53,997 bases of DNA from a virus (Duplodnaviria > Caudoviricetes), in the IMG/VR virus record IMGVR_UViG_3300033153_006956, positions 1-53,997 of that record. One strand, written 5' to 3'. The position numbers were made by a program, and so were the translations under genes. Each line of letters opens with the position of its first letter. Position 1 is the stretch's first letter. Below the pieces are notes generated by a model. It was not told the origin of the DNA. It searched no databases and saw nothing but the letters and a program-made list of their open reading frames with translations. Positions 1,104-49,408 of this stretch are shown piece by piece.

Positions 1104-1505
1104 TTAGCCACAACCAGAGCCAGAGCCGCAACCAGAGCCATAGCCATAGCCAGAGCCGCAGCCAGAGCCATAGCCAGAGCCACAACCAGAGCCATAGCCA
1201 TCCCCAGAGCCACCGCCAGAGCCATAGCCAGAGCCATCCCCAGAGCCACCGCCAGAGCCATAGCCATCCCCAGAGCCACAACCATCCCCAGAGCCGCAGC
1301 CATGGCCACAGTCATAGCCACAGCCATAGCCATAGCCAGAGCCATAGCCAGAGCCATCCCCAGAGCCACCGCCATAGCCACAATCATCCTCAGAGCCACA
1401 ACCAGAGCCATAGCCATAGCCGCAACCAGAGCCATAGCCATAGCCACAACCAGAGCCGCAGCCATAGCCACAACCAGAACCATCGCCATCCTTTATACTT
1501 TCCAT
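1104..1505 (-). CDS. Gly-X repeat protein (GSG/GYG/GCG/GDG), Cys-rich
   Basis: 6-bp periodic DNA, Gly at every second residue, overlapping the upstream DUF6948-like ORF as commonly seen in phages. Confidence 0.7.
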   Translation of the reverse strand: MESIKDGDGSGCGYGCGSGCGYGYGSGCGYGYGSGCGSEDDCGYGGGSGDGSGYGSGYGYGCGYDCGHGCGSGDGCGSGDGYGSGGGSGDGSGYGSGGGSGDGYGSGCGSGYGSGCGSGYGYGSGCGSGSGCG

Positions 1506-1864
1506 TGGGGGACCTCCTCTATACTTTCCTGTGCTTTCAGGGTACAGGGGATAATCTCGATTGTTTCTGTAAGCGTGATTTTTGAAACCGGCACAGAGAA
1601 TCGACAGCTTTTAGGTTTAGAAACCCCATCAGTGGCTAATTGTGATAGAGATGCCGCTCCAGCCCAATAGTGGATACGCCTGGAATTTACCAAAACAGAC
1701 TCTTTCCCTGCTCTTTTTTGCAAATACCCCACATGAACACCAGCTGAGTATGTGCGGATTACTACATACTCCATACCATCAAGCTGGTGTGCTCTTTGGT
1801 GAACACAGTCTTTGCGGATATATTCTACCTCATCAATTTTTATTGTTTTAACATCTGTACTCAT
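1493..1864 (-). CDS. DUF6948-like phage protein
   Basis: YVVIRTYSAGVHVG...RRIHYWAGAASLSQLA motif; AAGGAG RBS. Confidence 0.75.
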   Translation of the reverse strand: MSTDVKTIKIDEVEYIRKDCVHQRAHQLDGMEYVVIRTYSAGVHVGYLQKRAGKESVLVNSRRIHYWAGAASLSQLATDGVSKPKSCRFSVPVSKITLTETIEIIPCTLKAQESIEEVPQWKV

Positions 1865-1939
1865 AATACTCTCCTTTTCAGTTTTCTTTTTACCTTCGAT
1901 TTTCTTTTTGTTTTTTTTTTATGCCCCCATATCCCTTTC

Positions 1940-1976
1940 AAAAGAGGGCTGAGTGCCCCTGACACGACACCCAGCC
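1940..1976 (-). terminator. Putative intrinsic terminator after the E1 gene
   Basis: GGCTGGGTG/CACTCAGCC stem followed by CTCTTTT on the minus strand. Confidence 0.5.
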
Positions 1977-2000
1977 ACACACGAGATGAAGGAGATGAGT

Positions 2001-2759
2001 TCATTTTGGCCTCGTTTCTTCCAGACCTAGTGGTATAGTTGACATTCTTTGAGTCTCGAATATAAAATCTCTCACTAATGGTATTTCATTGAGCCAGTTC
2101 GCCAATTGAGATACCATTAGACCTGCTGCAATACAGGCCCCATACATCGTCATTCTATCCGTACAACTGCCGTCAAATGCCTCTGTATCACTAAACAATG
2201 TTTGGCGATAGTAGTCTCTTGCGGCCCCGTCCGCCAGTGGAATAGTGATTATCCTCATCACTCTGGTCGTCATTCGGGCATCAATCCACAACCCCTGCAA
2301 ATTCTCTTTCGGGTATAATGGTGTTGTCGGAAAGGCTGTTTTGGTCTTTGCCTCCATTGTCACCTTCTGCCATATCGCTTCCCTTGCCTGCATCTTGTCA
2401 ACACAGCAGAAAAATACATCCGTAGCTAGAAGGTATTTAGGAAGCACCTTTTCAAATTCCCAGAAGAAACCACTAAAAGTGGTGTCCTGGGTGGTCAACT
2501 GGTGTTCAAGGATATGGGCTTTGTGGTGTCTAATATCCCCCCTATCCCACCCTTGAGTCCCTACATTCTTCAGCTCCACCTTGTCGGGGTCAGCTCCATA
2601 CAGCTTCTTGTGCCCCATTGCCGCCAGAAGAATAGCGACTTGCCGACCAACTGCCCCAAGACCAGCTATGCCGATTGTTAATCCCCGATACTTTTGCAGG
2701 GGTAAAGAATCCTTAAACCGCAAATCTGCTGTCTCTTTTTGTTTCTTATTTTGTGTCAT
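2001..2759 (-). CDS. ThiF/E1-like ubiquitin-like activating adenylyltransferase
   Basis: GLGAVG nucleotide-binding loop, DPDKVELKN..TQ, CCVD, DARM and a C-terminal GSCT Cys. Confidence 0.88.
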   Translation of the reverse strand: MTQNKKQKETADLRFKDSLPLQKYRGLTIGIAGLGAVGRQVAILLAAMGHKKLYGADPDKVELKNVGTQGWDRGDIRHHKAHILEHQLTTQDTTFSGFFWEFEKVLPKYLLATDVFFCCVDKMQAREAIWQKVTMEAKTKTAFPTTPLYPKENLQGLWIDARMTTRVMRIITIPLADGAARDYYRQTLFSDTEAFDGSCTDRMTMYGACIAAGLMVSQLANWLNEIPLVRDFIFETQRMSTIPLGLEETRPK

Positions 2760-2827
2760 TTTTCATCTCCTCATTCAAGTATCATTATCTCATTTGGTTT
2801 AAGCATAGATTCCCCTTAGAATTTTAC

Positions 2828-3853
2828 TCATTCCCACCCATATTTTAGCATTTCTAGTTCCTCGTCAGTATATTCCTCATCAAACCGGCTGTTCTTTAGT
2901 CCCATACTGGCGAGGCTGGCCTCCCTGTTGGTGTCTTTATTTGTTACCTGAAATATCTTACTTTTGTTACCTTGTTTGTTTTTATTCTTTCTGGTGTTGC
3001 CTTTTCTTCCGCTGTTTTTCTTCCCAGTAACTCTCACCTCTGCCGCACGGAGGGTAAGTGGGTCAAAGTCCTCGACAATCCGTCCCCATCTCAATATTTC
3101 CACCGGAGTGTAACCTTTCGTTCTGGCGATATTGTATTCTGTCAGTGTCAAGATGGTAGATGACCTTATCCATTCGCTTATTATATATTGTTTTATCCCC
3201 TGTTGGCCAGCAGATTGAACGAGTCTTTTCCGGTAAGACTCGCCACTACGGGGGTTTTGGCGGAATCCTATTTGTCTCCCCTCCATTACAGTAGGCGATT
3301 GTAGAGCTGGTGCGGGTCGTTTGATATTTTTTTTGTATTCTTTGTTCCACTCACTACTTTTTGCGTCCCAAATAGAGGACGTCCAGTCTACATACAGAGT
3401 CAAGGGCACGGCGGCGTGCATTTCTATTCCTGGTATCTTCAAGGCTGCATGGAGTTCAGCAAAATGTTCTTCGCCACCCCCAAGTATTATCATTATGGCA
3501 TAGTCCGTTCCCCTCAAAAGTTTATCTTCAAGAGTCGAAATATCTACAGAGCTGGGAGATGGTTTCCCAGCAGAAAATGGATGAGTGTGAATCCATACCC
3601 GCATACAGTTGGATGGGTCAACCCCCCGCCTGGCGTTCCTCTCCACATGTTTTGCCAGTGCCATATCTTCTAACTCTGTAGTTGCAGAGGTATTCTCTTG
3701 ACTAACGGTTTGGAAGTCAATAACAGTTAGCGGATTCTCTTTCTCGGTTATCCCAAATCCGCTAATCTCTAAATTACCGGCTTTCTTCATAAACCATCGT
3801 ATTTTGGCCCATGCTGTTGGTGAAATTGTGAGTCTTTTGTTTTCTTTTTTCAT
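2828..3853 (-). CDS. JAB/JAMM (Mov34/MPN) metallopeptidase with a long C-terminal extension
   Basis: N-terminal Glu in LEISGFG and a WIHTHP...PSSVD metal-binding motif. Confidence 0.85.
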   Translation of the reverse strand: MKKENKRLTISPTAWAKIRWFMKKAGNLEISGFGITEKENPLTVIDFQTVSQENTSATTELEDMALAKHVERNARRGVDPSNCMRVWIHTHPFSAGKPSPSSVDISTLEDKLLRGTDYAIMIILGGGEEHFAELHAALKIPGIEMHAAVPLTLYVDWTSSIWDAKSSEWNKEYKKNIKRPAPALQSPTVMEGRQIGFRQNPRSGESYRKRLVQSAGQQGIKQYIISEWIRSSTILTLTEYNIARTKGYTPVEILRWGRIVEDFDPLTLRAAEVRVTGKKNSGRKGNTRKNKNKQGNKSKIFQVTNKDTNREASLASMGLKNSRFDEEYTDEELEMLKYGWE

Positions 3854-4929
3854 TGGTCTTTCCTTTCATTTTTGGTATCCTTCATATCTTTCATATTCTC
3901 CACGTTCTCCACGTTCTCCACGTTCTCCATGCAGCGTGGACATTTATCCAGACAGTTAATGCAAAGTGTGCTTCCGCACTCAGAACATGCGGCAGAGTGC
4001 TCTTGACAAATTTGTCTCCCACAGGAACTACATGTTTTCTGGGAGTAAGAACAAAGAGAGCAAAGAACTCGTGCCTTTTTTTTCGTCTCCGCACAAATAT
4101 AACAGTGCATGGTAGTCCTCTTAGGGGCACATTTCTTACAGTATGTAGTACCACATGTATCACAAGCAACTATTTCCTCCCGTGGAACCCATCTCCTACA
4201 GTGCCCCTCGGAGCACCAACCGCCTTGTTGGTCAGTGAACGTCACCAGGGGGGAATAGGCTCCTCTCGCACTGTAATTTTTCAGTATAATAACGAATGTG
4301 TTATAGGCGGTAATAATATCCCAGTTCACGGTAGCATGAGCCATAAGCTGGGCTGATTGTCCCATACACAGGTTCCCCATAGAGGCGTGGGGATGGAGTC
4401 TACCGGAACTTCCCTTGTGTGGCACATCTGTTGCTTTCAACCTGAAATTTAGTCGGCCCCCCTCTTGTCTTTCCCCCATAACATGTACTACAAAATGGTT
4501 AAACGGCACTTTCAATCCTCTATGGGACAAGATTATAGTCGGCTGTGGGATATCAAGAGAAAACCACGAGTGAGCCGGATTATCAGAAAATTCCAATACC
4601 CATCCATCCGGTAAACTATTGAAAAATCCATCCAGGTTTCTTTTAGATAGATACCCCTTAAAGTGGTCTCCCACGACCATAGCTGCTCTTATCGCTAGAC
4701 GGTGGGCATCAACTAACTTATGGGCTGCCGATTCTAGCGCGGAGGCCATGCCAATCCAACTTTCACAACTTCTCGCTTCCGCGACTCCCTCTCTGATTAT
4801 CCTCAAACCTCGTCTCCTCGGGAGTGTACTGAGCTGTCGTATTTTAGCCCGAAATGCTTTCCCCGCCAGTTCTGGACTATGTTCACTGGTGAAGACAGTT
4901 TTTGTTTTCTCTTTTGTTCCCTTTACCAT
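3850..4929 (-). CDS. Prokaryotic E2-like protein fused to a multi-CxxC zinc-finger tail
   Basis: HPHASMGNLC resembles the E2 HPN...GxIC active site; about 10 Cys/His ligand pairs at the C-terminus; likely start 4929 after GGAG. Confidence 0.7.
   Translation of the reverse strand: MVKGTKEKTKTVFTSEHSPELAGKAFRAKIRQLSTLPRRRGLRIIREGVAEARSCESWIGMASALESAAHKLVDAHRLAIRAAMVVGDHFKGYLSKRNLDGFFNSLPDGWVLEFSDNPAHSWFSLDIPQPTIILSHRGLKVPFNHFVVHVMGERQEGGRLNFRLKATDVPHKGSSGRLHPHASMGNLCMGQSAQLMAHATVNWDIITAYNTFVIILKNYSARGAYSPLVTFTDQQGGWCSEGHCRRWVPREEIVACDTCGTTYCKKCAPKRTTMHCYICAETKKKARVLCSLCSYSQKTCSSCGRQICQEHSAACSECGSTLCINCLDKCPRCMENVENVENVENMKDMKDTKNERKDQ
3895..3930. repeat. 9-bp tandem repeat encoding ENV x3
   Basis: TTCTCCACG repeated. 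Confidence 0.8.
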
Positions 4930-5020
4930 TTTATCATCTCCAAAAAAGCTGGGGTTATTCACCTTTATGGGTCCTTTATGGTTTTGGAATAACCCCAGCA
5001 CCCAAGATTGATTACAGGAG

Positions 5021-5266
5021 CTATACTTCCTTTGCTCCCTTCATATTGCTGGGGACGATAATGACAAAGTCCCCATCCTTAAGTACGCATTTTGAAGGCT
5101 CGGGGACAGGCTCACCGTTGACAACAACCGACAAGTTCTTGGGGTTTTGAATCCCCAGTTCGCCGTAGAGAGCTTCCTGTGCTGTCATTCCCTTTGCAAT
5201 CTGGACTACCCTAGTTGACCCCGTGCCTTTATTACTGACCAGTGTGATTTTACCGTTCATACCCAT
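5021..5266 (-). CDS. ThiS/MoaD-like beta-grasp ubiquitin-like protein
   Basis: 81 aa; VVVNGE...LKDGDFVIIVP...KGA signature; AAAGGA RBS; first gene of the E2-JAB-E1 run. Confidence 0.85.
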   Translation of the reverse strand: MGMNGKITLVSNKGTGSTRVVQIAKGMTAQEALYGELGIQNPKNLSVVVNGEPVPEPSKCVLKDGDFVIIVPSNMKGAKEV

Positions 5267-5293
5267 TTTTCTGTTCCTTTCTTGTCTAACTAC

Positions 5294-5530
5294 TTAATTA
5301 ACCTCTTTTACCACTATTCCCCGACCCCTCGCCACTGTTTTTACCAGGTTTTTATGCTTCGTAGTTGTTATACAGTGGAAAATACTGGACTCGGGCATCA
5401 CAATCTCATCCCCGTCCCACCTCGCAATAACAACCCCATACGACTTCAGGTTTTCCCCATCCGTACTGATTGCCCCTTCCAACGGATAGCCACTTAGGAA
5501 GGCTGAAACTACATCTATATTCTTTGCCAT
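5294..5530 (-). CDS. Hypothetical phage protein (STDG..LKSYG..IA motif)
   Basis: ORF track; likely start 5530; an in-frame hydrophobic segment lies upstream from 5656. Confidence 0.6.
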   Translation of the reverse strand: MAKNIDVVSAFLSGYPLEGAISTDGENLKSYGVVIARWDGDEIVMPESSIFHCITTTKHKNLVKTVARGRGIVVKEVN

Positions 5531-5702
5531 AGGCAATCCCCTTTCCCCCATCTCCATCAAACTATCAATCTTTGCATCTATACTTAGCCACACAATCACA
5601 ATAGTAGTGTATAAACATACCGCTAAAATCAAATTATTAGTATTATGGTTTTTCATTTTTTCCTGCCTTATCCTCGAAAATTTTTTATTTTTTTTCCTAC
5701 AC

Positions 5703-5733
5703 TTTATACGCCGCACAAAAAAAAAGTTTGCAA
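5703..5733 (-). promoter_or_regulatory. Putative promoter for the ubiquitin-like block (TTGCAA...GCGTATAAA)
   Basis: Shares the GCGTATA -10 element with the other promoters; -35 and spacing are weaker. Confidence 0.5.
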
Positions 5734-5806
5734 AAAAATAAAAAATTTTTCGCAAAAAAGTTAAATCGTATTATCTTTTTATCATTTTTGAGATAAAAAA
5801 ATCGCC

Positions 5807-5830
5807 GGAAATCAGGAATTATCACTCGCT
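5807..5830. repeat. 24-bp direct repeat, copy 2
   Basis: Exact match to 634-657. Confidence 0.9.
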
Positions 5831-5870
5831 GACTGTCCGGCTAGAAATGCACCCCTGCAAATAAAAACCG

Positions 5871-5975
5871 CTATTCTTCACAGTAAAGGGGCATACCCCC
5901 CTTATAGTGGTCTGGTTTTGGTCTCGGCAACACCCACGCTAGGTTTTTCTTTTGTGTCTCACTATTATATCCCAT
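5871..5975 (-). pseudogene. 34-aa ORF, possibly a truncated gene (MGYNSETQKKNLAWVLPRPKPDHYKGGMPLYCEE)
   Basis: Manual translation; coupled to the upstream stop and ends about 40 bp from the 24-bp repeat. Confidence 0.4.
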
Positions 5976-6339
5976 TTTTGAACTCCGGCGGTAAAATTAC
6001 ATTCGATGGGCAATCCGTGAACATTTTCCCTATTTTGCAGGGGGAAATTCCAGCTAACCCTGTCCCAATCGGTGTTACTAGAAATACCAACTCTGGGCGT
6101 GCTCGTGCGTAGGACAAAAAAGATTTCACATACTCGTGGATAACACAGAGAGGTAAAGTCTTTAAGTTTTTATCTTTTGTAGGGATAGCGAAGGACTGAC
6201 CTTGTAACCCATACCCCTGTCCATACACAGCCCCAAACTCTTCTGCCGCCTGCTTTGCCGCACCCGCACCGTGTCTACCCGCCTCATTCGACCCAAACAC
6301 AAAAATCTCGTTATCTTTTAGCTCTGTGATAAATTCCAT
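5965..6339 (-). CDS. A1S_2505-like phage protein (macrodomain-like)
   Basis: EIFVFGSNEAGRHGAGAA...VTPIGTGLAG motifs; likely start 6339. Confidence 0.75.
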   Translation of the reverse strand: MEFITELKDNEIFVFGSNEAGRHGAGAAKQAAEEFGAVYGQGYGLQGQSFAIPTKDKNLKTLPLCVIHEYVKSFLSYARARPELVFLVTPIGTGLAGISPCKIGKMFTDCPSNVILPPEFKNGI

Positions 6340-6818
6340 TATTCTACTTTTTGCTCCACTAAACATATTGTATCGTTGTGGTCTCCACCGTGACAAACCA
6401 GACAAACCGCTATCTTCTCGAACCCTCTACTCTTCGACATCCCCACGCTATCATACCCCAAACTGATAACCCTTGCCCTGTCATTCAGTATTCCTGGCAA
6501 AGCATTTTTAATTTTAGTGAGGTGTCCAATATACTTGCCGTTATACTTTTCTCTCGACTTGCGGATGTTGTATGGTGGGTCAAGAATCACGGTATCAAAT
6601 TGCAGGGGGGTGGTAGTAACAAACTCGAACGCATCACTGCACACATCGGGTCGGAACTCATTGGACAAATCAACCCTGAACTCATTTACACCAAGTCTGA
6701 CTTTACCCGCAAATAAATTGAGAGTCTTGCCCACGCACCAATGCTCAACCCACGTTTTGAGTTTCGGCTGCTCAAAAGTCCATCGTTTAGGGGGTTGTTG
6801 TAGATATGTTATTTCCAT
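6339..6818 (-). CDS. Small amino-methyltransferase-like protein
   Basis: LNLFAG (SAM-binding) and DPPY catalytic motif. Confidence 0.7.
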   Translation of the reverse strand: MEITYLQQPPKRWTFEQPKLKTWVEHWCVGKTLNLFAGKVRLGVNEFRVDLSNEFRPDVCSDAFEFVTTTPLQFDTVILDPPYNIRKSREKYNGKYIGHLTKIKNALPGILNDRARVISLGYDSVGMSKSRGFEKIAVCLVCHGGDHNDTICLVEQKVE

Positions 6819-12073: not shown

Positions 12074-12610
12074 TTACAATAGTATTTTCAATGCTCTTAC
12101 TATCCCAACAAATAATGCGTCTTTCACTTTCTGCTCAACTGGCAGATTCTCGTATGGTACACAACAAGGATGCTCCCTCTTTTCGGGGTCTTTCACCTCC
12201 CCATATTTCCACCCTTCTGCATATTTTTCTTTTAGCCAGCTCTCATGTGAAGCTGAACAGCCGGCTTCTGGATTATCAAGATGAAACTGAACTCCATTTA
12301 TAGCACTTTTTTTCTGCCAGTCTGGTGCAGCACCCCAAGGTAATTGACTAAAATCACCTGTTAATTCACAATAAACTCTGTTTGTTTCGTGTGCTACCTG
12401 TGCAATCTGCTCTATTGTCATTTTTTTTCTTCCTTTCAAATTATTGTTACTTGAATTCCTTCTTTTCTTTTTCTTTCTTCTTTTTTTTGGTTTACTTTCC
12501 TCCTCACAATATGGGCACATATCTGGGAACTGGGTATGCCCAGCCAAATGGTCAAACCACATATCCTCGCCCTGTTCAGTTAGATACTCTGCCATATCAC
12601 CCATTGCCAT
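12074..12610 (-). CDS. RyR-domain protein (domain starts at M64, 12421)
   Basis: IAQVAHETNR...HESW...GWKYG..KD....HPCCVPY..LP motif. Confidence 0.8.
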   Translation of the reverse strand: MAMGDMAEYLTEQGEDMWFDHLAGHTQFPDMCPYCEEESKPKKRRKKKKRRNSSNNNLKGRKKMTIEQIAQVAHETNRVYCELTGDFSQLPWGAAPDWQKKSAINGVQFHLDNPEAGCSASHESWLKEKYAEGWKYGEVKDPEKREHPCCVPYENLPVEQKVKDALFVGIVRALKILL

Positions 12611-16964: not shown

Positions 16965-17314
16965 TTAATATGGCTAACTTCTTTATGAGAGATGTCGTAT
17001 ATATATGCTATTATATACTGCTTTATGCCATCTGTCAACATCTTTCTAATTGTTAATACATCTGACGAAGATAATTTTCGGTTGTGATTACCATCACTTA
17101 CCCGTCTCCGAAAACTAACTGTTCGTTTTAACCCCCGAAGATGATGGGATGTGTGAACACCACGAGTCATTACTTGAAGATTTTCTATGTTATTGTTTGC
17201 TGAATTACCATCTTTATGGTGAACTACCTCATTTTCGGATAACTCTCTCCCAAGAACTCTCTCCATCATGATTCGTGAAGCTGTATATCTTTTGTATCTA
17301 AATCGTTTCTTCAT
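16934..17314 (-). CDS. HNH homing endonuclease with a C-terminal HTH
   Basis: VVHHKDGN..NN...NL...H..HH. Confidence 0.85.
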   Translation of the reverse strand: MKKRFRYKRYTASRIMMERVLGRELSENEVVHHKDGNSANNNIENLQVMTRGVHTSHHLRGLKRTVSFRRRVSDGNHNRKLSSSDVLTIRKMLTDGIKQYIIAYIYDISHKEVSHIKCRRVWAWLK

Positions 17315-19923
17315 TTTATTGTTCTTTCATACTCAATGGGAATACTTCTTCCCAATTCTTGTTCTAAAACCTTCATAAGTGGTGGGTTTGTCAAGTGTTT
17401 TTTCGCTATCTCGTCCACTTTTTCTACCTCGTCATAAGGGGTATCAATGGTAATAGAATCATACTTATTGGTACAGATAACCGACCTCATTCTGTTACGT
17501 CTCAGTTCCTGCAAGATAACAAACTGTGAACTCAATGGTATCTGCCCGCTTCCCAGTGTCTGTATCGGGAAGTTACAAATCTCGTTCATAGCACCCATCG
17601 CATTTGACATCCCCCTCCCGAATGTTCGGCTCCATCCTGTCGGTAATTCCAAATAGCCCTGCTTGGCCACTGTCTCAATTAACTCGTCCTGCCACGCCTT
17701 AAATACAGGGTGCTCTGCATACCAAGTATCAATATGTGCCTTCGCCTGCTCGAATGGTATCTCCAGTCCACAATCAGAACGTGCTGTCATCTGGTACGCC
17801 TTTGGCCCACCACGATAAATAATCAAAAAGTTCAAAGCCTTCGATGACCTGTACTCCTTCGTGTCTTTCACCTCAGATATTGGGAGAGTCAGCAAATGTG
17901 GGTACAGTGAGTAGGTCGTGTTTAAGTGGATACTCTGTCCTGGATTTTGGTACACATCCATCAGCACCGGACATCCAGACAGGAAGGCAGCCATCCGCAA
18001 TTCAATCTGGCTGAAGTCATAAGTTCTAAGAGTGCCAGCGTGGAATCTTGATTTCAAGCACGCCTTCACTGGCCGTGGGAAAGTTTGTGCTGGCGGCTTA
18101 CGTGGTGTTATCCTCCCCTGTATAGTCCCCCCCTTTTTCTCTTCCCCATTCGTACCACCCTTCTCGAACACTGTGGGAACCGGATACCATACAGGCCAAA
18201 ACCAGCCGGTTTTACGGTCTCGATAAATAATGCCCTCTCGTGGATGTGTGAGCATTTTGTTGGTATATGTATTTCTTAAATGTGAATATTCATCGTACAC
18301 TTTCATTTGCTCTGCTACTTCCCGCAACTCCCCCTCCGGCAGATACTGTAAAACCAAATTCACGTTAGCCTTGTTAGCACTTATTTCTTTTCTGACTTTA
18401 GTTCGCTCGACTCTTTTATCCCCCTGCAAATTACATTCCTCAATGGCGGCGGTCATAAATTCTACTTTTGATTTCCTCGACCCCTCCCCTCCGAAGACAA
18501 CCCCACTTTCTTCCCCTTTTTCTAATGCCCCGATACAAATTTTTTCATACTCATCATTGACAGCCTGCAATTTGGGGATGTCTATTCGTTCCCCAGCCTT
18601 CTCCATCCCCACTACATTCCAGATAATATCATTTCTCATCTTGGCACATACGCTGCCGAGTTTGGCGGAATCAGGACCATATCTGATTTTGATTCTCTCG
18701 TCTATTTCTTCCCCAAGTACAAGAGTAGCAGCGGCATCAAGACAGTTGTAGTACAGAAGGTCTGGGTCTCTGGCCGTCCCCGCATTTCCCTTTGAGCCAG
18801 TTACATTCAACCCCTGATAGTTAGCTATACCATACAGGAGAGACAATTCTTTTAAGCCCTTCTCTGGTTGACTCTCGTCCAGCAGAAAAGTTTTTATCAG
18901 CGTGTCGTCCACCGTCAAATGATTGGGGTCAAGTAGTCTGTCCAGTAGTGGGTCATTCATAATCAGGTACAGAAGGTCATACTTAAAATTTTGCCCCTGC
19001 AAAACACTCTTCGCACCTATAGCCCTTCTCACCCAGCTTCTGATTAGTTTCTGGTGTATAGGGTCGGCGAATATATAAACCGGAGTTCGTATCTTGCAGG
19101 GGCTGGAACTAAAATGAGTATCCCGATAAGCAAATGACACGGTAACTACTTGCTTCCCATAAGGCACTCCATCTACGTATTTGGATTTTGCAGGGGTAAA
19201 AACACTCTGATTAAACCCCTTCAGTATCCCGTAGGTTTCAATATCACAGGTCAACAGTGACGGCATTTTGTCTGGTACTTCCGCACCCAGTTCTGGTACA
19301 ATCTGTAGTTTATTTGGTACAAACTCCCCAGTCAGATACCGTCTCAACAGCATAAAGTGAGCCTGGATAGTACCCACCCTCTCTGGTTTTCTTCCAGGAT
19401 ACAGGATGGCTGGGTGATTAGTAAAGAAGAGAGTCGGCATCCTTGACAGTATTTCCATCGACATTGTTCCCTCTGTCAATCCCTGTAGCTTCAGCCCCTC
19501 CCCCAGACTCGACACCCCAGCTACCGACTTAGCGGCGTCAGCACCGCAGGCCAGCACCACTACCTCGTCATAGTTATCCAGCAGCTTCTGGATGTCGTAT
19601 AGTAGATGTGGCCGGCAGGCATTTATCTGTGTTTTGGTCGGTTTCTCTTTGATGGGCACACGACACCGGAGAGCATTGGACAAATAGATATCCACCAGCT
19701 CGGGTAGCTTGATAGCATTGATAAACTTCCCAAGAATATCACCACTCCATCCTATCCACGATTTACCGGCCTGGTCTTCGTGATAGCCAGGAGCCATTCC
19801 AACGACCAGCAGAGCACGGTTGTGTCCTCTAACCTCAAACTCCCGTGTGGGAATTCCAGGATTTATCGCCTCTTTACACAGTTGACAATCTTCACAATCT
19901 TGATGGCTCGGAAATTCAATCAT
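17311..19923 (-). CDS. polA: DNA polymerase family A with an N-terminal uracil-DNA glycosylase (family 4-like) domain and a 3'-5' exonuclease
   Basis: CxxC, GMAPG..ED..G...IG.SG, NALRC and HPA (UDG); DIET, NFKYD and YNCLD (exo); DFSQIELR, KALNF...Y and YDS (pol motifs A/B/C). Confidence 0.92.
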   Translation of the reverse strand: MIEFPSHQDCEDCQLCKEAINPGIPTREFEVRGHNRALLVVGMAPGYHEDQAGKSWIGWSGDILGKFINAIKLPELVDIYLSNALRCRVPIKEKPTKTQINACRPHLLYDIQKLLDNYDEVVVLACGADAAKSVAGVSSLGEGLKLQGLTEGTMSMEILSRMPTLFFTNHPAILYPGRKPERVGTIQAHFMLLRRYLTGEFVPNKLQIVPELGAEVPDKMPSLLTCDIETYGILKGFNQSVFTPAKSKYVDGVPYGKQVVTVSFAYRDTHFSSSPCKIRTPVYIFADPIHQKLIRSWVRRAIGAKSVLQGQNFKYDLLYLIMNDPLLDRLLDPNHLTVDDTLIKTFLLDESQPEKGLKELSLLYGIANYQGLNVTGSKGNAGTARDPDLLYYNCLDAAATLVLGEEIDERIKIRYGPDSAKLGSVCAKMRNDIIWNVVGMEKAGERIDIPKLQAVNDEYEKICIGALEKGEESGVVFGGEGSRKSKVEFMTAAIEECNLQGDKRVERTKVRKEISANKANVNLVLQYLPEGELREVAEQMKVYDEYSHLRNTYTNKMLTHPREGIIYRDRKTGWFWPVWYPVPTVFEKGGTNGEEKKGGTIQGRITPRKPPAQTFPRPVKACLKSRFHAGTLRTYDFSQIELRMAAFLSGCPVLMDVYQNPGQSIHLNTTYSLYPHLLTLPISEVKDTKEYRSSKALNFLIIYRGGPKAYQMTARSDCGLEIPFEQAKAHIDTWYAEHPVFKAWQDELIETVAKQGYLELPTGWSRTFGRGMSNAMGAMNEICNFPIQTLGSGQIPLSSQFVILQELRRNRMRSVICTNKYDSITIDTPYDEVEKVDEIAKKHLTNPPLMKVLEQELGRSIPIEYERTIK

Positions 19924-46354: not shown

Positions 46355-49300
46355 TTACCTCGTTATAATATTAGGCTTATTTCTTGTTTTATATTTACCC
46401 TCATTTTGGGGGGAATAGAAATTAGCAAGAAGATTCCGCATTTCTTCAGCAGTTAAATCTGACGGATTGACTCCACTCAACAATGGCAGACCAGGGGCTA
46501 TTGGTTCACCAGATTTTATTTGTTGGGAGAGGGTTTTTTTTGCAGGGGCTTTGGCCGACTCACGCCCACGAGTATGAACAAGGAAGATGCTCATAGCAAC
46601 AGTATCAATAGCATCATCATATCGAAGAAGGGCTAGGTCTCTTGTAAAATTTTCAGTTTGTTCATAGAGGGCGGAGAAAGGCCACTCATTAACACGATGG
46701 TGTGGATACTTGATTTTACCGGCGTTGAATCTCCATTCCAAACCAGCAATGCGGTCACCCTTTGACATTCTGGCCGGATAGCGAATGGGGATAACGCGGG
46801 GAACCCAAATGCTAGATTCCCCCCCGCTAGCTCCTAGTTTTCTGGTAAACTCATTTACATACTCTCCCATTGAATCAACGAGATTCCCCTGTGTCCCACA
46901 GGCCTCAATACCGATAGCCCTCACCAGCCACTTTTGTCCCATCTCATATATTTTACGGTAGAAGACCGAATCTTTTACCTTGCCCAACCATAAGTCTAGT
47001 ACCCACAAACAGTTGTTGTGGTCAAAGCCGAGGATGGCTATGGAGCGATAATCGTTCTTTGCCTCAAGCCCACTGGCTGTATCCACTAGAGCCACCCTAT
47101 ACATAGACCCGAAAACTTTGTGGATTTGTCCCTGCTTTTTTTCTGTCTCGAAATCGGGAGCTTCTCCTGGATTACCCACACGTTTTCGTTCATTCCAGAA
47201 TACCTCTTTGGTGGAGGAAAGAAGATGAGCTTGCTCCTGTGGTTCCATCGTCCGATAGTCGGGGATGATGTATTCGTTGAAGTCTGGGTCAATTTGGAGA
47301 AGTTTGGTTTCGTCCGTGAGTGGGCGATTCAAATACTCACTGGAATACGCTGAAGTTCCAATCTCCATCTCCCGTGCACGCAAGAACTCAAGCGGCCAAG
47401 CTGCGTCCCAGAGAGCTTTGGTGCGGGTGGTGTCCTCAGCAACATAAACACGCCGCATCCATACCCCAAATCGAGGGTCATCACCCTCGCAGGCCCGATA
47501 CAGGAGACACCGGCGGTTTATCATAGTCCCAATCCAAAAAATTGCCGAGCCTTTGGCAAGCATTGGGATAATCTGTCGAAATAGAATCTGCTCATACTTC
47601 TCAGTGATAAGATATTGGGAATTAGAGGAACCACCAGTTGCCTCGGAGTCAAATTCAGGGTCGTCAAGTATAAAAAGTCGTGGCCGAGCACCACGTTTGC
47701 GGCCCATTACACTGAATCCCTCTATAACTGAACCATTCGCCAGATGGAGATGGTGGTGATTCCAGATGGCAGTTCCCCTTAGCGGTTTTATTACCCCGAA
47801 ATCAGCGGTTATTTGGGGATTCTCGGTAAGTTCTATCATCAATCTGTCAAACCGCCCCTCTATAAGGCGGTCTGTGGACATACCCATCGCAATACTGAAG
47901 TATGGGCGGGTGAGGGCCAACAGCAATGGGGCTTCCACACCTATCACAGTAGAGTTATGAACAAATATTCCCTCACAAAGAAAATTGGCGTTATCTTCCA
48001 CTTGAATATCATAAGCATCATCAGCTCCCCCATCTTCTATTGAGATAACTGGGTCCCAGTAAATATCCGATGTGGCGAGATTCATCAAGTCTTGACGGCC
48101 AGTTATTTCTGCAACTTTTTTTAGTTTTAGTCGGGTTATTCGATAATGATTATCAATTCGTATACCATATTTCTGCCGGAATTTCCACATCGAGAGAGGA
48201 AGTCTTTGTTTTTCTTCAAATGGAAAATAGATATTGTCAGTCGCATCGTGTCCAATTTCAATATTGTCAAGCAAAATCATTTTTCGCTTGATGCGAAAAC
48301 CTACCAAATCTCGAAACTTCAATCGTGCCTCTGCTGAAGAAATATGAAGTCCCCATGAATCAAACTCTTTATCATATTTAGAGTATTTCGCTTTCCTATA
48401 TGTATATCGGGAACGTATCCCCAACCTGAGAAGAGCCAGTTGTACATCTCGAATTAAATCTTTATTGGCCAGGGTAAGTGAGATTGACCCATTTTGTTTG
48501 CTGACTGTACCATCTGTATCAAAAAGGCCGCGAAGAAAAGCTGCAAGACATTCATCAGATGCTTCCCAAACAGCCTGTGGGATACGTTTTTCTGTTGATT
48601 TATGGCCAAATAATCCATGTTTTTTGATAAAATCTATTCCCCCATTGGTTATACTCCATCTTCCTTTTGCCTTGGTTTTACGTAACTGCCAATCTGGATG
48701 ATGCTTTACAGCCTTCAAGACAGTTTGAATAATCTCTTTATCGAATGTCGTAATCTGGCAACAACTGGTGGTGCTGCCGTCACCTGTTAATATCCCTAAC
48801 AACTCCGAGTCTAATATAGTCAATTTTCCTCTAGCCTGTGTGGGTAATGATGTTCGAGGAGTTGCGATTAAATCACCAATTTTTAAATCCCCCCCTGCTA
48901 TCCAAGTGTTATTAGTTAAGATACGGTGTTCTTTTGAGCAGAATACTCTATGGCCTTGTTTGGTTGTAATTTTGAGAAAAGATTTTTTACCAGAATACTC
49001 TACAGCTATTACTTTCTTCCAGGAAAGTTTAAGAGAAGAATCAAGGCTTAAAATCTTTTCTCCTTTTTTGATATTTTTTAATTTTTTGTATCCCGATAAA
49101 GTGGAGATTAAAGAGTCCCATCGCCCACATTTGGCGAAACCTCGTGGGGCAGCTTGTGCATTACGGCTCCACTGCCCCAAATCCCGTATGAGCTGGTAAT
49201 GAAAGTCAGGACTTTTCTTAAACCCGCTCTGATAGAAGGCTTCTCCTCTTGGGCGGAGATAGAGATTACGGAATAACACCCACGCATTTACCAAGTCTTC

Positions 49301-49408
49301 CGGAGTGTCCTGCTTGCGAAGTGTGGATAGACGGGCCTCCTTCTGCCCCTCTACAGTAAGAGTCGGATAATCCTCTGGAAGAGGATAATATGGATTGGTT
49401 TCGTTCAT
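46355..49408 (-). CDS. terL: Terminase large subunit containing an intein
   Basis: APRGFAK|ST Walker A split by the intein, RG.RP..FILDDPE Walker B, WIGT, SEYLN.P, VD.A, DDAID nuclease motifs. Confidence 0.92.
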   Translation of the reverse strand: MNETNPYYPLPEDYPTLTVEGQKEARLSTLRKQDTPEDLVNAWVLFRNLYLRPRGEAFYQSGFKKSPDFHYQLIRDLGQWSRNAQAAPRGFAKCGRWDSLISTLSGYKKLKNIKKGEKILSLDSSLKLSWKKVIAVEYSGKKSFLKITTKQGHRVFCSKEHRILTNNTWIAGGDLKIGDLIATPRTSLPTQARGKLTILDSELLGILTGDGSTTSCCQITTFDKEIIQTVLKAVKHHPDWQLRKTKAKGRWSITNGGIDFIKKHGLFGHKSTEKRIPQAVWEASDECLAAFLRGLFDTDGTVSKQNGSISLTLANKDLIRDVQLALLRLGIRSRYTYRKAKYSKYDKEFDSWGLHISSAEARLKFRDLVGFRIKRKMILLDNIEIGHDATDNIYFPFEEKQRLPLSMWKFRQKYGIRIDNHYRITRLKLKKVAEITGRQDLMNLATSDIYWDPVISIEDGGADDAYDIQVEDNANFLCEGIFVHNSTVIGVEAPLLLALTRPYFSIAMGMSTDRLIEGRFDRLMIELTENPQITADFGVIKPLRGTAIWNHHHLHLANGSVIEGFSVMGRKRGARPRLFILDDPEFDSEATGGSSNSQYLITEKYEQILFRQIIPMLAKGSAIFWIGTMINRRCLLYRACEGDDPRFGVWMRRVYVAEDTTRTKALWDAAWPLEFLRAREMEIGTSAYSSEYLNRPLTDETKLLQIDPDFNEYIIPDYRTMEPQEQAHLLSSTKEVFWNERKRVGNPGEAPDFETEKKQGQIHKVFGSMYRVALVDTASGLEAKNDYRSIAILGFDHNNCLWVLDLWLGKVKDSVFYRKIYEMGQKWLVRAIGIEACGTQGNLVDSMGEYVNEFTRKLGASGGESSIWVPRVIPIRYPARMSKGDRIAGLEWRFNAGKIKYPHHRVNEWPFSALYEQTENFTRDLALLRYDDAIDTVAMSIFLVHTRGRESAKAPAKKTLSQQIKSGEPIAPGLPLLSGVNPSDLTAEEMRNLLANFYSPQNEGKYKTRNKPNIITR
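47954..49129 (-). mobile_element. Intein (392 aa) with LAGLIDADG homing endonuclease
   Basis: Starts with Cys (CGRWDS), block B SKEHRI, LLGILTGDG and FLRGLFDTDG, ends VHN followed by Ser. Confidence 0.92.

Follow-up and report, generated by a model that had tools for sequence, protein, structure and literature searches.

A predicted cassette of Ubl, E2-like, JAB, and E1 genes carried beside replication genes in phage genomes

We analyzed the viral record IMGVR_UViG_3300033153_006956 (53,997 bp), an entire IMG/VR virus record with a CheckV completeness of 100%, and found that it carries a complete-looking set of genes for the conjugation of a ubiquitin-like protein (Ubl). The set consists of a Ubl, an E2-like protein with zinc fingers, a metallopeptidase of the JAB/JAMM type, and an E1-type adenylating enzyme, and the four genes are adjacent, co-oriented, and tightly packed on the minus strand within positions 2001 to 5266 of the record (Table 1), the whole length of which is referred to below as the window. 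An initial annotation made from the letters of the DNA had proposed such an operon. All of the genes and motifs that it quoted are indeed present where it placed them, the genes being on the minus strand, and the motifs are not a matter of chance: no variation in them was seen when 29 E1s, 10 JABs, and 115 E2-like proteins were aligned. We consider it rather likely that the four genes specify a phage-encoded, self-contained conjugation cascade of the bacterial type, which serves the infection cycle of the phage itself.

Table 1. Positions of the cassette genes, of their notable parts, and of related loci in other viral genomes
Feature	Position	Strand	Remarks
Ubl	5021..5266	-	81 aa; single beta-grasp, ThiS/MoaD-like; Pfam ThiS
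E2-like protein	3850..4929	-	359 aa from ATG; alternative GTG at 5001 gives 383 aa
Predicted E2 active-site loop	4366..4395	-	H179-P-H181...C188; codons 4395-4387 and 4368-4366
Zinc-finger array	3931..4215	-	Residues 239-333 of the E2-like protein; 19 Cys, eight CxxC pairs
JAB/JAMM metallopeptidase	2828..3853	-	341 aa; start overlaps the E2 stop by 4 nt
E1	2001..2759	-	252 aa; single-domain ThiF/MoeB/UBA5-like adenylating enzyme
Terminator-like hairpin	1947..1976	-	25 nt past the E1 stop; consensus match only
78-aa ORF, candidate fifth component	5294..5530	-	Directly upstream of Ubl
Cassette L002/L030	59.5-kb contig		Whole record G001
Cassette L003/L031	57.4-kb contig		Whole record G002
Cassette L032	52.2-kb contig		Whole record G003
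Cassette L033	65.5-kb contig		Whole record G004
Cassette L034	180-kb contig		Whole record G005
Cassette L035	57.4-kb contig		Locus nearly the same as that of L034
PhiCrAssBcn2 cluster	L028, 1354-5708		JAB-ThiF pair and upstream genes
Flavobacterium phage Fpv3 cluster	L029, 1649-5660		Same neighborhood as in PhiCrAssBcn2

The E1 is recognizable at the family level, with one ThiF domain (Pfam, E value of 1e-11; 44.9 bits against a cutoff of 28.1). It contains the motifs GLGAVG (residues 33 to 38) and GSC199T, and residues G33, G35, G38, D57, D59, D121 (the Asp of the CVD motif), R126, and C199 were invariant among 29 relatives sharing 44 to 69% identity; the N-terminal R14 was conserved in at least 90% of these 29 sequences. 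A profile of the E1 matched ThiF (2.8e-9), MccB, UBA5, BubCD, and the NEDD8 E1 in the PDB, in the N-terminal half only. Since C199 is invariant and positioned after the CVD Asp, we infer that it is the candidate thioester cysteine. The distance from the CVD Asp to the Cys is about 57 residues in ThiF and MoeB. In the seven cassettes described below, all of which have the candidate cysteine, it is 58 to 65 residues where there is no insertion and 78 residues in the window. The E1s of the other cassettes are 225 to 270 aa long when counted from the homologous start, with 297 aa for the longest open reading frame (ORF) of L002.

The JAB protein consists of a JAB domain (residues ~1 to 170) and a C-terminal extension of ~170 residues, which has an unknown fold and is conserved among the phage versions only. 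Although no Pfam family matched the window protein, the PADLOC JAB model did so (E value of 7.4e-4), and a profile search of the PDB gave the Rpn11-like protein of Caldiarchaeum (6fjv; 1e-4) as the best match, followed by yeast Rpn11 (0.009). Residues E29, H89, H91, S101, and D104, arranged as E29, H89-T-H91, and S101-x-x-D104, were invariant in the alignment of 10 JABs, and by this pattern the protein has a zinc site of the JAMM/JAB type (E...HxH...S-x-x-D).

The Ubl carries the motifs VNGE, LKDGD, and KGA-KEV and exceeds the Pfam ThiS cutoff (E value of 1.1e-4; 23.1 bits against 22.5), with weak NCBIfam matches to a MoaD family (0.005) and to SAMP2. Its C terminus shows a conserved K76-G77 followed by a four-residue tail, AKEV. 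The K-G pair is invariant in the three closest Ubls, and in all seven cassettes the Ubl ends with K/T-G plus 1 to 9 residues. The same layout, a Gly with a short tail, is given for type II BilA, which is processed by the JAB peptidase BilC, in the accessible portion of PMC10557695.

The identity of the 359-aa protein encoded between Ubl and JAB is the least evident of the four. An exhaustive HMMER search yielded a family of 116 representatives, 18 of them at an E value of 1e-10 or below, and 115 sequences were aligned. H179, C188, and G190 were invariant in this alignment, defining an HPH-x6-C-x-G motif, and P180, H181, Y219, and fifteen Cys columns were conserved in at least 90% of the sequences; one cassette carries HPY for HPH. 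No His column after C188 was among the listed columns that were invariant or at least 90% conserved. AlphaFold2 (AF2) was useless from the single sequence (predicted local distance difference test [pLDDT] of 36), whereas with the alignment it gave a model with a pLDDT of 88 and a predicted template modeling score of 0.77. The model shows a helical bundle (residues 16 to 107), a beta-meander (111 to 166) after which come the HPH...C loop and two long helices (190 to 217), and a zinc-finger region (236 to 330). A four-strand meander with flanking helices and an active-site loop after the sheet, which characterize the ubiquitin-conjugating (UBC) fold, are all present in it, and residues ~103 to 234 form the UBC-like core.

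Some of the searches for relatives of this core point the same way. In a second look over Foldseek's 999 best chains, the matches listed for the alpha/beta core were ubiquitin-conjugating enzymes; the wide search itself was dominated by helical-bundle matches to residues 16 to 107 and was uninformative on the core. A relative, P0061, is 34 to 37% identical to the window protein, and its core gave 17 matches at an E value of 10 or below when compared with the PDB by phmmer, 16 of which were E2 enzymes (best E value, 0.13). In these alignments, HPH falls on HPN and the Cys on the catalytic Cys of UBE2C, a downstream Trp is in register, and NAPGVYSPL is aligned with the "...PNIDSPL" stretch of E2s (N-x-x-x-x-SPL in register). 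Besides, P0061 matched positions 66 to 117 of Pfam UQ_con at an E value of 0.049. General searches with the window protein returned little: there was no match in PADLOC, PHROGs, or NCBIfam and only a weak zf-AN1 in Pfam, a word-based protein search found the protein itself alone, and tblastn against 50,697 GenBank phages gave no match. We conclude that the 359-aa protein is, with high probability, an enzyme of the UBC fold that has diverged strongly and has an active site of the classical type, because the predicted fold, the motif, and the gene context agree; this call is based on those three and not on a significant sequence match. The E2 assignment in the initial annotation is thereby favored with moderate strength by the AF2 model and by the E2s among the listed fold matches.

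The C-terminal part of the protein is rich in cysteines, of which 12 columns together with C239, C244, and C308 were conserved in at least 90% of the 115 sequences. A profile of the whole protein matched the C4C4 RING-like finger of TFIIH p44 (9.6e-5), the RING-between-RING (RBR) region of RNF31/HOIP (9.7e-4), and FYVE and RING fingers. IBR matches were weak and found in 3 of 26 relatives (E values of 0.007 to 0.03), zf-AN1 was matched at 0.0087, and the top PDB entries for the model in Foldseek (E values of 0.13 to 0.3) were RBR ligases and double PHD fingers. The length of the tail also varies between cassettes, and we read it as a variable module that may bind targets or act in an E3-like manner.

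Several results, however, weigh against a conjugation cascade. The cutoff of Pfam UQ_con was reached by none of the 115 relatives of the E2-like protein (best E value, 0.0037), and in three phage genomes (G000 to G002) the UQ_con and Prok-E2_B models had no match, even at an E value of 10 or below. A profile of the core retrieved no E2 from the PDB, giving one unrelated match at 0.49; phmmer searches started from the core of the window protein or from that of L034 found no E2 either, so that the link was made by one of three single cores; and the model of the E2-like protein had no Foldseek match in the PDB at an E value of 0.001 or below. The zinc tail is not universal, as L033 has only 5 Cys after the motif. 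Furthermore, the Ubl resembles ThiS and MoaD in sequence, not ubiquitin (Pfam and NCBIfam), and proteins of the ThiS type usually act as sulfur carriers.

The last point leads to a different function, in which the ThiF-like enzyme would adenylate the ThiS-like protein to yield a thiocarboxylate that thiolates a metabolite, tRNA, or DNA, with the JAB protein trimming the carrier and the Cys- and zinc-rich protein acting as a sulfurtransferase or scaffold. Trimming of a sulfur carrier by a JAB peptidase has precedents in QbsD/QbsE and Mec/CysO. The families matched by the Ubl are ThiS, MoaD, and SAMP2 only, the best family and PDB matches of the E1 are ThiF, distant phage homologues bear the GenBank label "thiamine biosynthesis protein," and an MT-A70 methylase gene and a deoxyribosyltransferase-like gene, both nucleotide modifying, lie near the cassette. 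We nevertheless regard such a pathway as improbable. The E1 reaches 40.5 bits against the 159 of the NCBIfam ThiF/MoeB equivalogs, far under the cutoff, and has no rhodanese domain. As the initial annotation had noted, no thiamine or molybdopterin genes are nearby: a Pfam scan of 58 ORFs of the window found none, nor any rhodanese, cysteine desulfurase, PP-loop ATPase, ThiG/ThiH, MoaE, or other acceptor enzyme. The product of the middle gene, which always accompanies the others, is modeled as a UBC fold with an E2-type HPH...C. According to the accessible text of Iyer et al. 2006 (PMC1779556), E1s in neighborhoods of E2 and JAB genes never carry a rhodanese domain.

The conjugation reading also draws on the conservation of the four genes as a set. 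When IMG/VR was scanned with the E1 and JAB alignments, Ubl, E2-like, JAB, and E1 genes in the same order were found in six further viral records, making seven cassettes with that of the window, and the catalytic residues and all four genes are retained in every one of them (a search of viral contigs with the single E1 sequence had given no related loci). Records G001 to G005 are all at 100% CheckV completeness, and three of the five have direct terminal repeats. G001 to G003 are sisters of the window's phage, with DNA polymerases 47 to 61% identical and a 530-aa protein of the virion region 51 to 72% identical, whereas G004 is distant (27 to 34%) and G005 shares neither marker. Identity to the window proteins goes down to 33 to 50% for Ubl, 31 to 35% for JAB, 33 to 50% for E1, and 23 to 32% (best local stretch) for the E2-like protein. 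Direct alignment with the window's E2-like protein is limited to the active-site stretch in the two lineages farthest from it, but their E2-like proteins match other sequences of the 116-member family at E values of 1e-11 or below. L034 and L035 encode, at 2009-2746, a 245-aa Ubl of three beta-grasp repeats that ends with KG-A and adjoins genes for a 710-aa E2-like protein and a 654-aa JAB; the 180-kb record of L034 has terminal repeats. A JAB-E1 pair was also found on three short metagenome contigs.

The cassette occurs in at least three phage lineages, and its origin from a misassembled host fragment is unlikely because it stands in the same place in three sister genomes and is found in at least two other lineages. 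That it is phage borne, as initially annotated, agrees with the other contents of this complete record: nearly all genes lie on the minus strand, and they include a large terminase, a family-A DNA polymerase, a Sak4-like annealing protein, a PD-(D/E)XK exonuclease, and the MT-A70 methylase (Pfam/PHROGs), as well as large unannotated proteins that are presumably structural. No close relative of the E1 was found in one genome for each of 185,579 prokaryote species by a pattern-based scan with the E1 alignment (best, 32% over part of the protein); the 10 loci that it gave were partial or at most 32% identical over more than 100 residues and had no adjoining gene with the E2 motif or a JAMM site. 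Distant E1s of ~218 aa share 32 to 39% identity with the window's E1 and ~49% with that of L034. Because they include the ThiF of a Pirellulales metagenome-assembled genome (39%; 2.6-kb contig) and one on a 1.7-Mb contig, the wider E1 family, as judged from these sequences, is not strictly viral, and relatives of the E1 may reside in bacterial chromosomes. The initial annotation had seen a hint of a Planctomycetota host; the Pirellulales ThiF and one Atlas cluster (score, 0.78) are weak leads only.

In addition to the presence of the four genes, their location bears on the role of the system. In all four genomes of this phage group, the cassette is in the same place, beside replication and nucleotide-metabolism genes, which does not fit the "accessory" region assumed at first. 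Because of this constancy, and because the position within the replication module recurs in every lineage, including the crAss-like and Fpv look-alikes described below, the cassette suggests a role in the phage's own cycle, in which host or phage proteins of replication or takeover would be modified, rather than a sporadic defense moron.

Bil tags the central tail fiber. A Bil-like cargo for antiphage defense or superinfection exclusion, tagging a structural protein of competing phages, can be envisaged for the phage as well, and we hold it to be unlikely. The characterized bacterial operons of Ubl, E2, JAB, and E1 genes, namely Bil and type II CBASS (cyclic oligonucleotide-based antiphage signaling system), act in antiphage defense as far as the available parts of PMC11601596 and PMC11601603 describe them; PADLOC models of the CBASS type weakly match the E1 (4.4e-7) and the JAB protein (7.4e-4), and the distant E1s noted above are perhaps on bacterial chromosomes. 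However, a gene set kept in place while the polymerases diverged to 47 to 61% identity is core-like and not a moron, the replication module is not a typical site for cargo, the search of prokaryote species gave no close E1, and the single-domain E1 and the upstream His of the E2-like protein depart from the features that define Bil.

Counterdefense seems very improbable to us. Here, the JAB protein would strip conjugates of a host Ubl or CD-NTase in the manner of Cap3, or the Ubl, E1, and E2-like protein would titrate or mis-tag components of a Bil- or CBASS-type system of the host. JAB peptidases reverse conjugation in CBASS and Bil, according to the accessible part of PMC11601596, and the JAB protein of L033 weakly matches Cap3 (E value of 0.0049, far below the cutoff). 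A lone JAB would suffice for this purpose, whereas all four genes and their catalytic residues are kept in the seven records, and nothing points to a Bil- or CBASS-type system in the host.

If the genes form a conjugation cascade, its steps might be as follows, judging from the anatomy of the genes alone. The JAB protein would trim AKEV from the pro-Ubl and thereby expose Gly77. The small E1, which is probably homodimeric, as ThiF, MoeB, and UBA5 are, would adenylate Gly77 and take the Ubl as a thioester on Cys199, from which the Ubl would be handed to Cys188 of the UBC-like protein, where HPH would stand in for HPN. The variable N-terminal helical bundle and the RING/IBR-like zinc fingers would then choose the target, making the protein an E2/E3 hybrid, and the Ubl would be attached to a lysine in a protein of the host or the phage. 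The JAB protein may also reverse the mark. A JAB-primed relay as in type II Bil, as outlined in the available text on that system, is suggested because the anatomy fits, with a JAB protein and a tailed Ubl.

Possible relatives of the cassette occur in cultured phages. A tblastn search with the E1 found 70 GenBank phage records at 25 to 29% identity over ~90% of the protein, which are PhiCrAss001-type Bacteroides phages, other crAss-like genomes, and FpV4-type Flavobacterium phages; the ThiF proteins in question are labeled "thiamine biosynthesis protein" or hypothetical. In PhiCrAssBcn2, the ThiF gene (Pfam, 4.8e-16) has a gene for a Prok-JAB protein (5e-4) just upstream, preceded by genes for a 444-aa protein, which contains H-S-H...C-x-G, and for a 225-aa protein whose N terminus looks Ubl-like by eye. 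The cluster belongs to the replication module, with the primase gene on one side and the uracil-DNA glycosylase gene on the other. Alignment of the crAss001-type proteins with the E2-like and Ubl profiles by hhalign was weak (444-aa protein, E value of 0.007 with a probability of 5%; 225-aa protein, 0.11). A Foldseek search of BFVD with the E2-like model returned proteins of two crAss-like phages, at 6.3e-3 and 0.059. We take a relationship between these clusters and the cassette as a lead and do not claim homology for the two upstream proteins. The broader proposal, that phages of several lineages, perhaps including PhiCrAss001-like and FpV4-like phages, run a ubiquitination-like pathway of their own in which an E2/E3 hybrid tags proteins of replication or takeover, is possible but is put forward with less than even confidence.

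The cassette may extend beyond four genes. The start of the 78-aa ORF at 5530 was chosen by homology and by the GGGGAAAGGGG stretch upstream of it, the longest ORF extending to 5755. Homologues stand directly upstream of Ubl in L002, L003, and L032, that is, in four of the seven cassettes counting the window. The protein matched no Pfam or NCBIfam family; its nearest Atlas clusters are viral, with DUF8033 in 12 to 14% of members, and it could serve as a fifth component or have a regulatory role. With regard to transcription signals, the terminator-like hairpin noted initially was recovered, with a stem of 11 pairs (7 of them G-C), an 8-nt loop, and then CTCTTTTGAA. The promoter claimed upstream was not confirmed: a sigma-70 scan placed no site in the interval that separates Ubl from the next gene, and the seven sites within 1400-6500 are not in excess of the 8.3 +/- 2.9 found in shuffled sequences. 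What can be spotted by eye is a noncanonical TTGCAA-19 nt-TATAAA in an A+T-rich stretch near 5722-5692, with a spacing beyond the usual 16 to 18 nt.

Some further features of the window were observed. Immediately 3' of the hairpin is a gene for a DUF6948 protein (1493-1864, minus strand; Pfam, 1.1e-29), and at 1105-1489 there is a tandem repeat with a period of 6/12/30 and ~31 copies of a 12-mer, whose minus strand encodes a protein of Gly-Ser/Tyr/Cys repeats (ORF 1104-1505); a different repeat-rich ORF is found at the end of L003. A gene for an RyR-domain protein (12074-12610, minus strand; Pfam, 6.7e-12) adjoins the Sak4-like gene. The family-A DNA polymerase (17311-19923, minus strand) has an N-terminal domain of the uracil-DNA-glycosylase superfamily (UDG, 1.4e-13; residues 37 to 174), and this fusion is full length in the sister phages G001 to G003 too. 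The large terminase (46355-49408, minus strand) is split by an intein that contains a LAGLIDADG homing endonuclease (Pfam Intein_splicing, 2.3e-19, and LAGLIDADG_3, 1.2e-18; residues ~100 to 485), the PHROGs terminase match covering residues 486 to 956.

In the openly readable literature, the Ubl conjugation shown in prokaryotes belongs to bacterial antiphage systems only (Bil, type II CBASS, and Bub). Here, the virus itself carries a complete-looking cascade, which has been kept although the polymerases diverged to less than 50% identity. If active, it could allow phages to write a ubiquitin-type mark on proteins during infection, and the fusion of an E2 with zinc fingers would be a minimal E2/E3 solution of evolutionary interest. 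If the proposal is true, the cassette would be a viral counterpart of Bil, CBASS, and Bub and a new class of phage-directed posttranslational control. The distant look-alike clusters in culturable crAss-like phages would bring the question within reach of bench work. We found no description of a phage-encoded Ubl-E2-JAB-E1 cassette in the openly searchable literature, although the supplementary tables of the Bil and Bub studies may list phage-borne operons; for Asgard viruses, the accessible part of 10.1101/2021.07.29.454249 describes E1-like genes alone.

Among known systems, Caldiarchaeum has a "eukaryote-like" operon of ubiquitin, E1, E2, a small RING protein, and an Rpn11-like protein. The cassette shares with it a classical E2 motif and a RING-like zinc module, which are fused here, and the Caldiarchaeum Rpn11-like protein is the best solved relative of the JAB protein, while the ThiS/MoaD-like Ubl and the minimal single-domain E1 set the cassette apart. 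Classical E2s such as UBE2S, Ubc13, and UBE2C differ from the E2-like protein in having HPN where it has HPH; besides, its similarity to them is below family thresholds, zinc fingers are fused to it, and its partner E1 is minimal and ThiF-like. With the ThiS-ThiF and MoaD-MoeB pairs, the cassette has in common a ThiS-type carrier and a ThiF-type adenylase, both above Pfam cutoffs, but unlike them it has no sulfur donor or acceptor genes among the 58 window ORFs scanned, although such partners could be host encoded. A Ubl/JAB pair for tail assembly, as in lambda gpI/gpK, was ruled out, as the genes lie outside the structural module and include an E1 and an E2.

Four further systems were likewise compared, and the kinship with Bil or CBASS Cap2/Cap3 raised by the initial annotation was not borne out, since the features that define those systems are lacking. 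Bil (BilA/B/C/D; classes 6c/6d of Iyer 2006) resembles the phage cassette in having separate Ubl, E2, JAB, and E1 genes and no separate E3 gene. Type II BilA has a conserved Gly with a short tail and a JAB gene in the operon, as here (PMC10557695, accessible portion), and the Ubls of Bil and Bub contain between one and three beta-grasp domains according to the available text of PMC11601603, the phage Ubl being single in the window and triple in L034 and L035. The phage E1s, of 225 to 270 aa and a single domain, are unlike the E1 architecture given for Bil in the accessible part of PMC11601596. As described in the available portions of PMC1779556 and PMC10557695, in E2s of the Bil type the classical upstream His is absent and a His located downstream of the Cys is used instead, whereas the upstream HPH is conserved here, with an extra helical bundle and zinc fingers, and the carrier is a phage and not a bacterial defense island. 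Membership in Bil was ruled out by the single-domain E1 and the retained upstream His.

Type II CBASS shares the chemistry of E1, E2, and JAB, and the weak PADLOC match of the E1 is to its E1-E2 model. Cap2, however, is an E2-E1 fusion acting on a CD-NTase, whereas the E2 and E1 are separate genes here and none of the 58 ORFs matched the CD-NTase family, so that membership in the Cap2/Cap3 type was ruled out. Bub has E1 and E2 proteins without a catalytic Cys and a DUF6527 protease, BubE, according to the available part of PMC11601596. Although BubCD is a detectable relative of the window's E1 by PDB profile, membership in Bub (6E) was ruled out, as neither C199 nor C188 varies and the 58 ORFs scanned gave no match to DUF6527.

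The PRTRC systems (TIGR03734-03742) are likewise mobile-element cassettes built around a ThiF-type E1, and the E1s encoded in the window, in L002, and in L003 have PRTRC_ThiF as their best or second-best NCBIfam match. Membership was ruled out by scores of 30 to 39 bits against a cutoff of 144.75; PRTRC A, B, C, E, and F had no match in the 6 cassettes scanned, nor any ParB family in the 58 window ORFs scanned. We read the cassette as a variant of the Ubl conjugation systems of the bacterial type, one that phages carry beside their replication genes.

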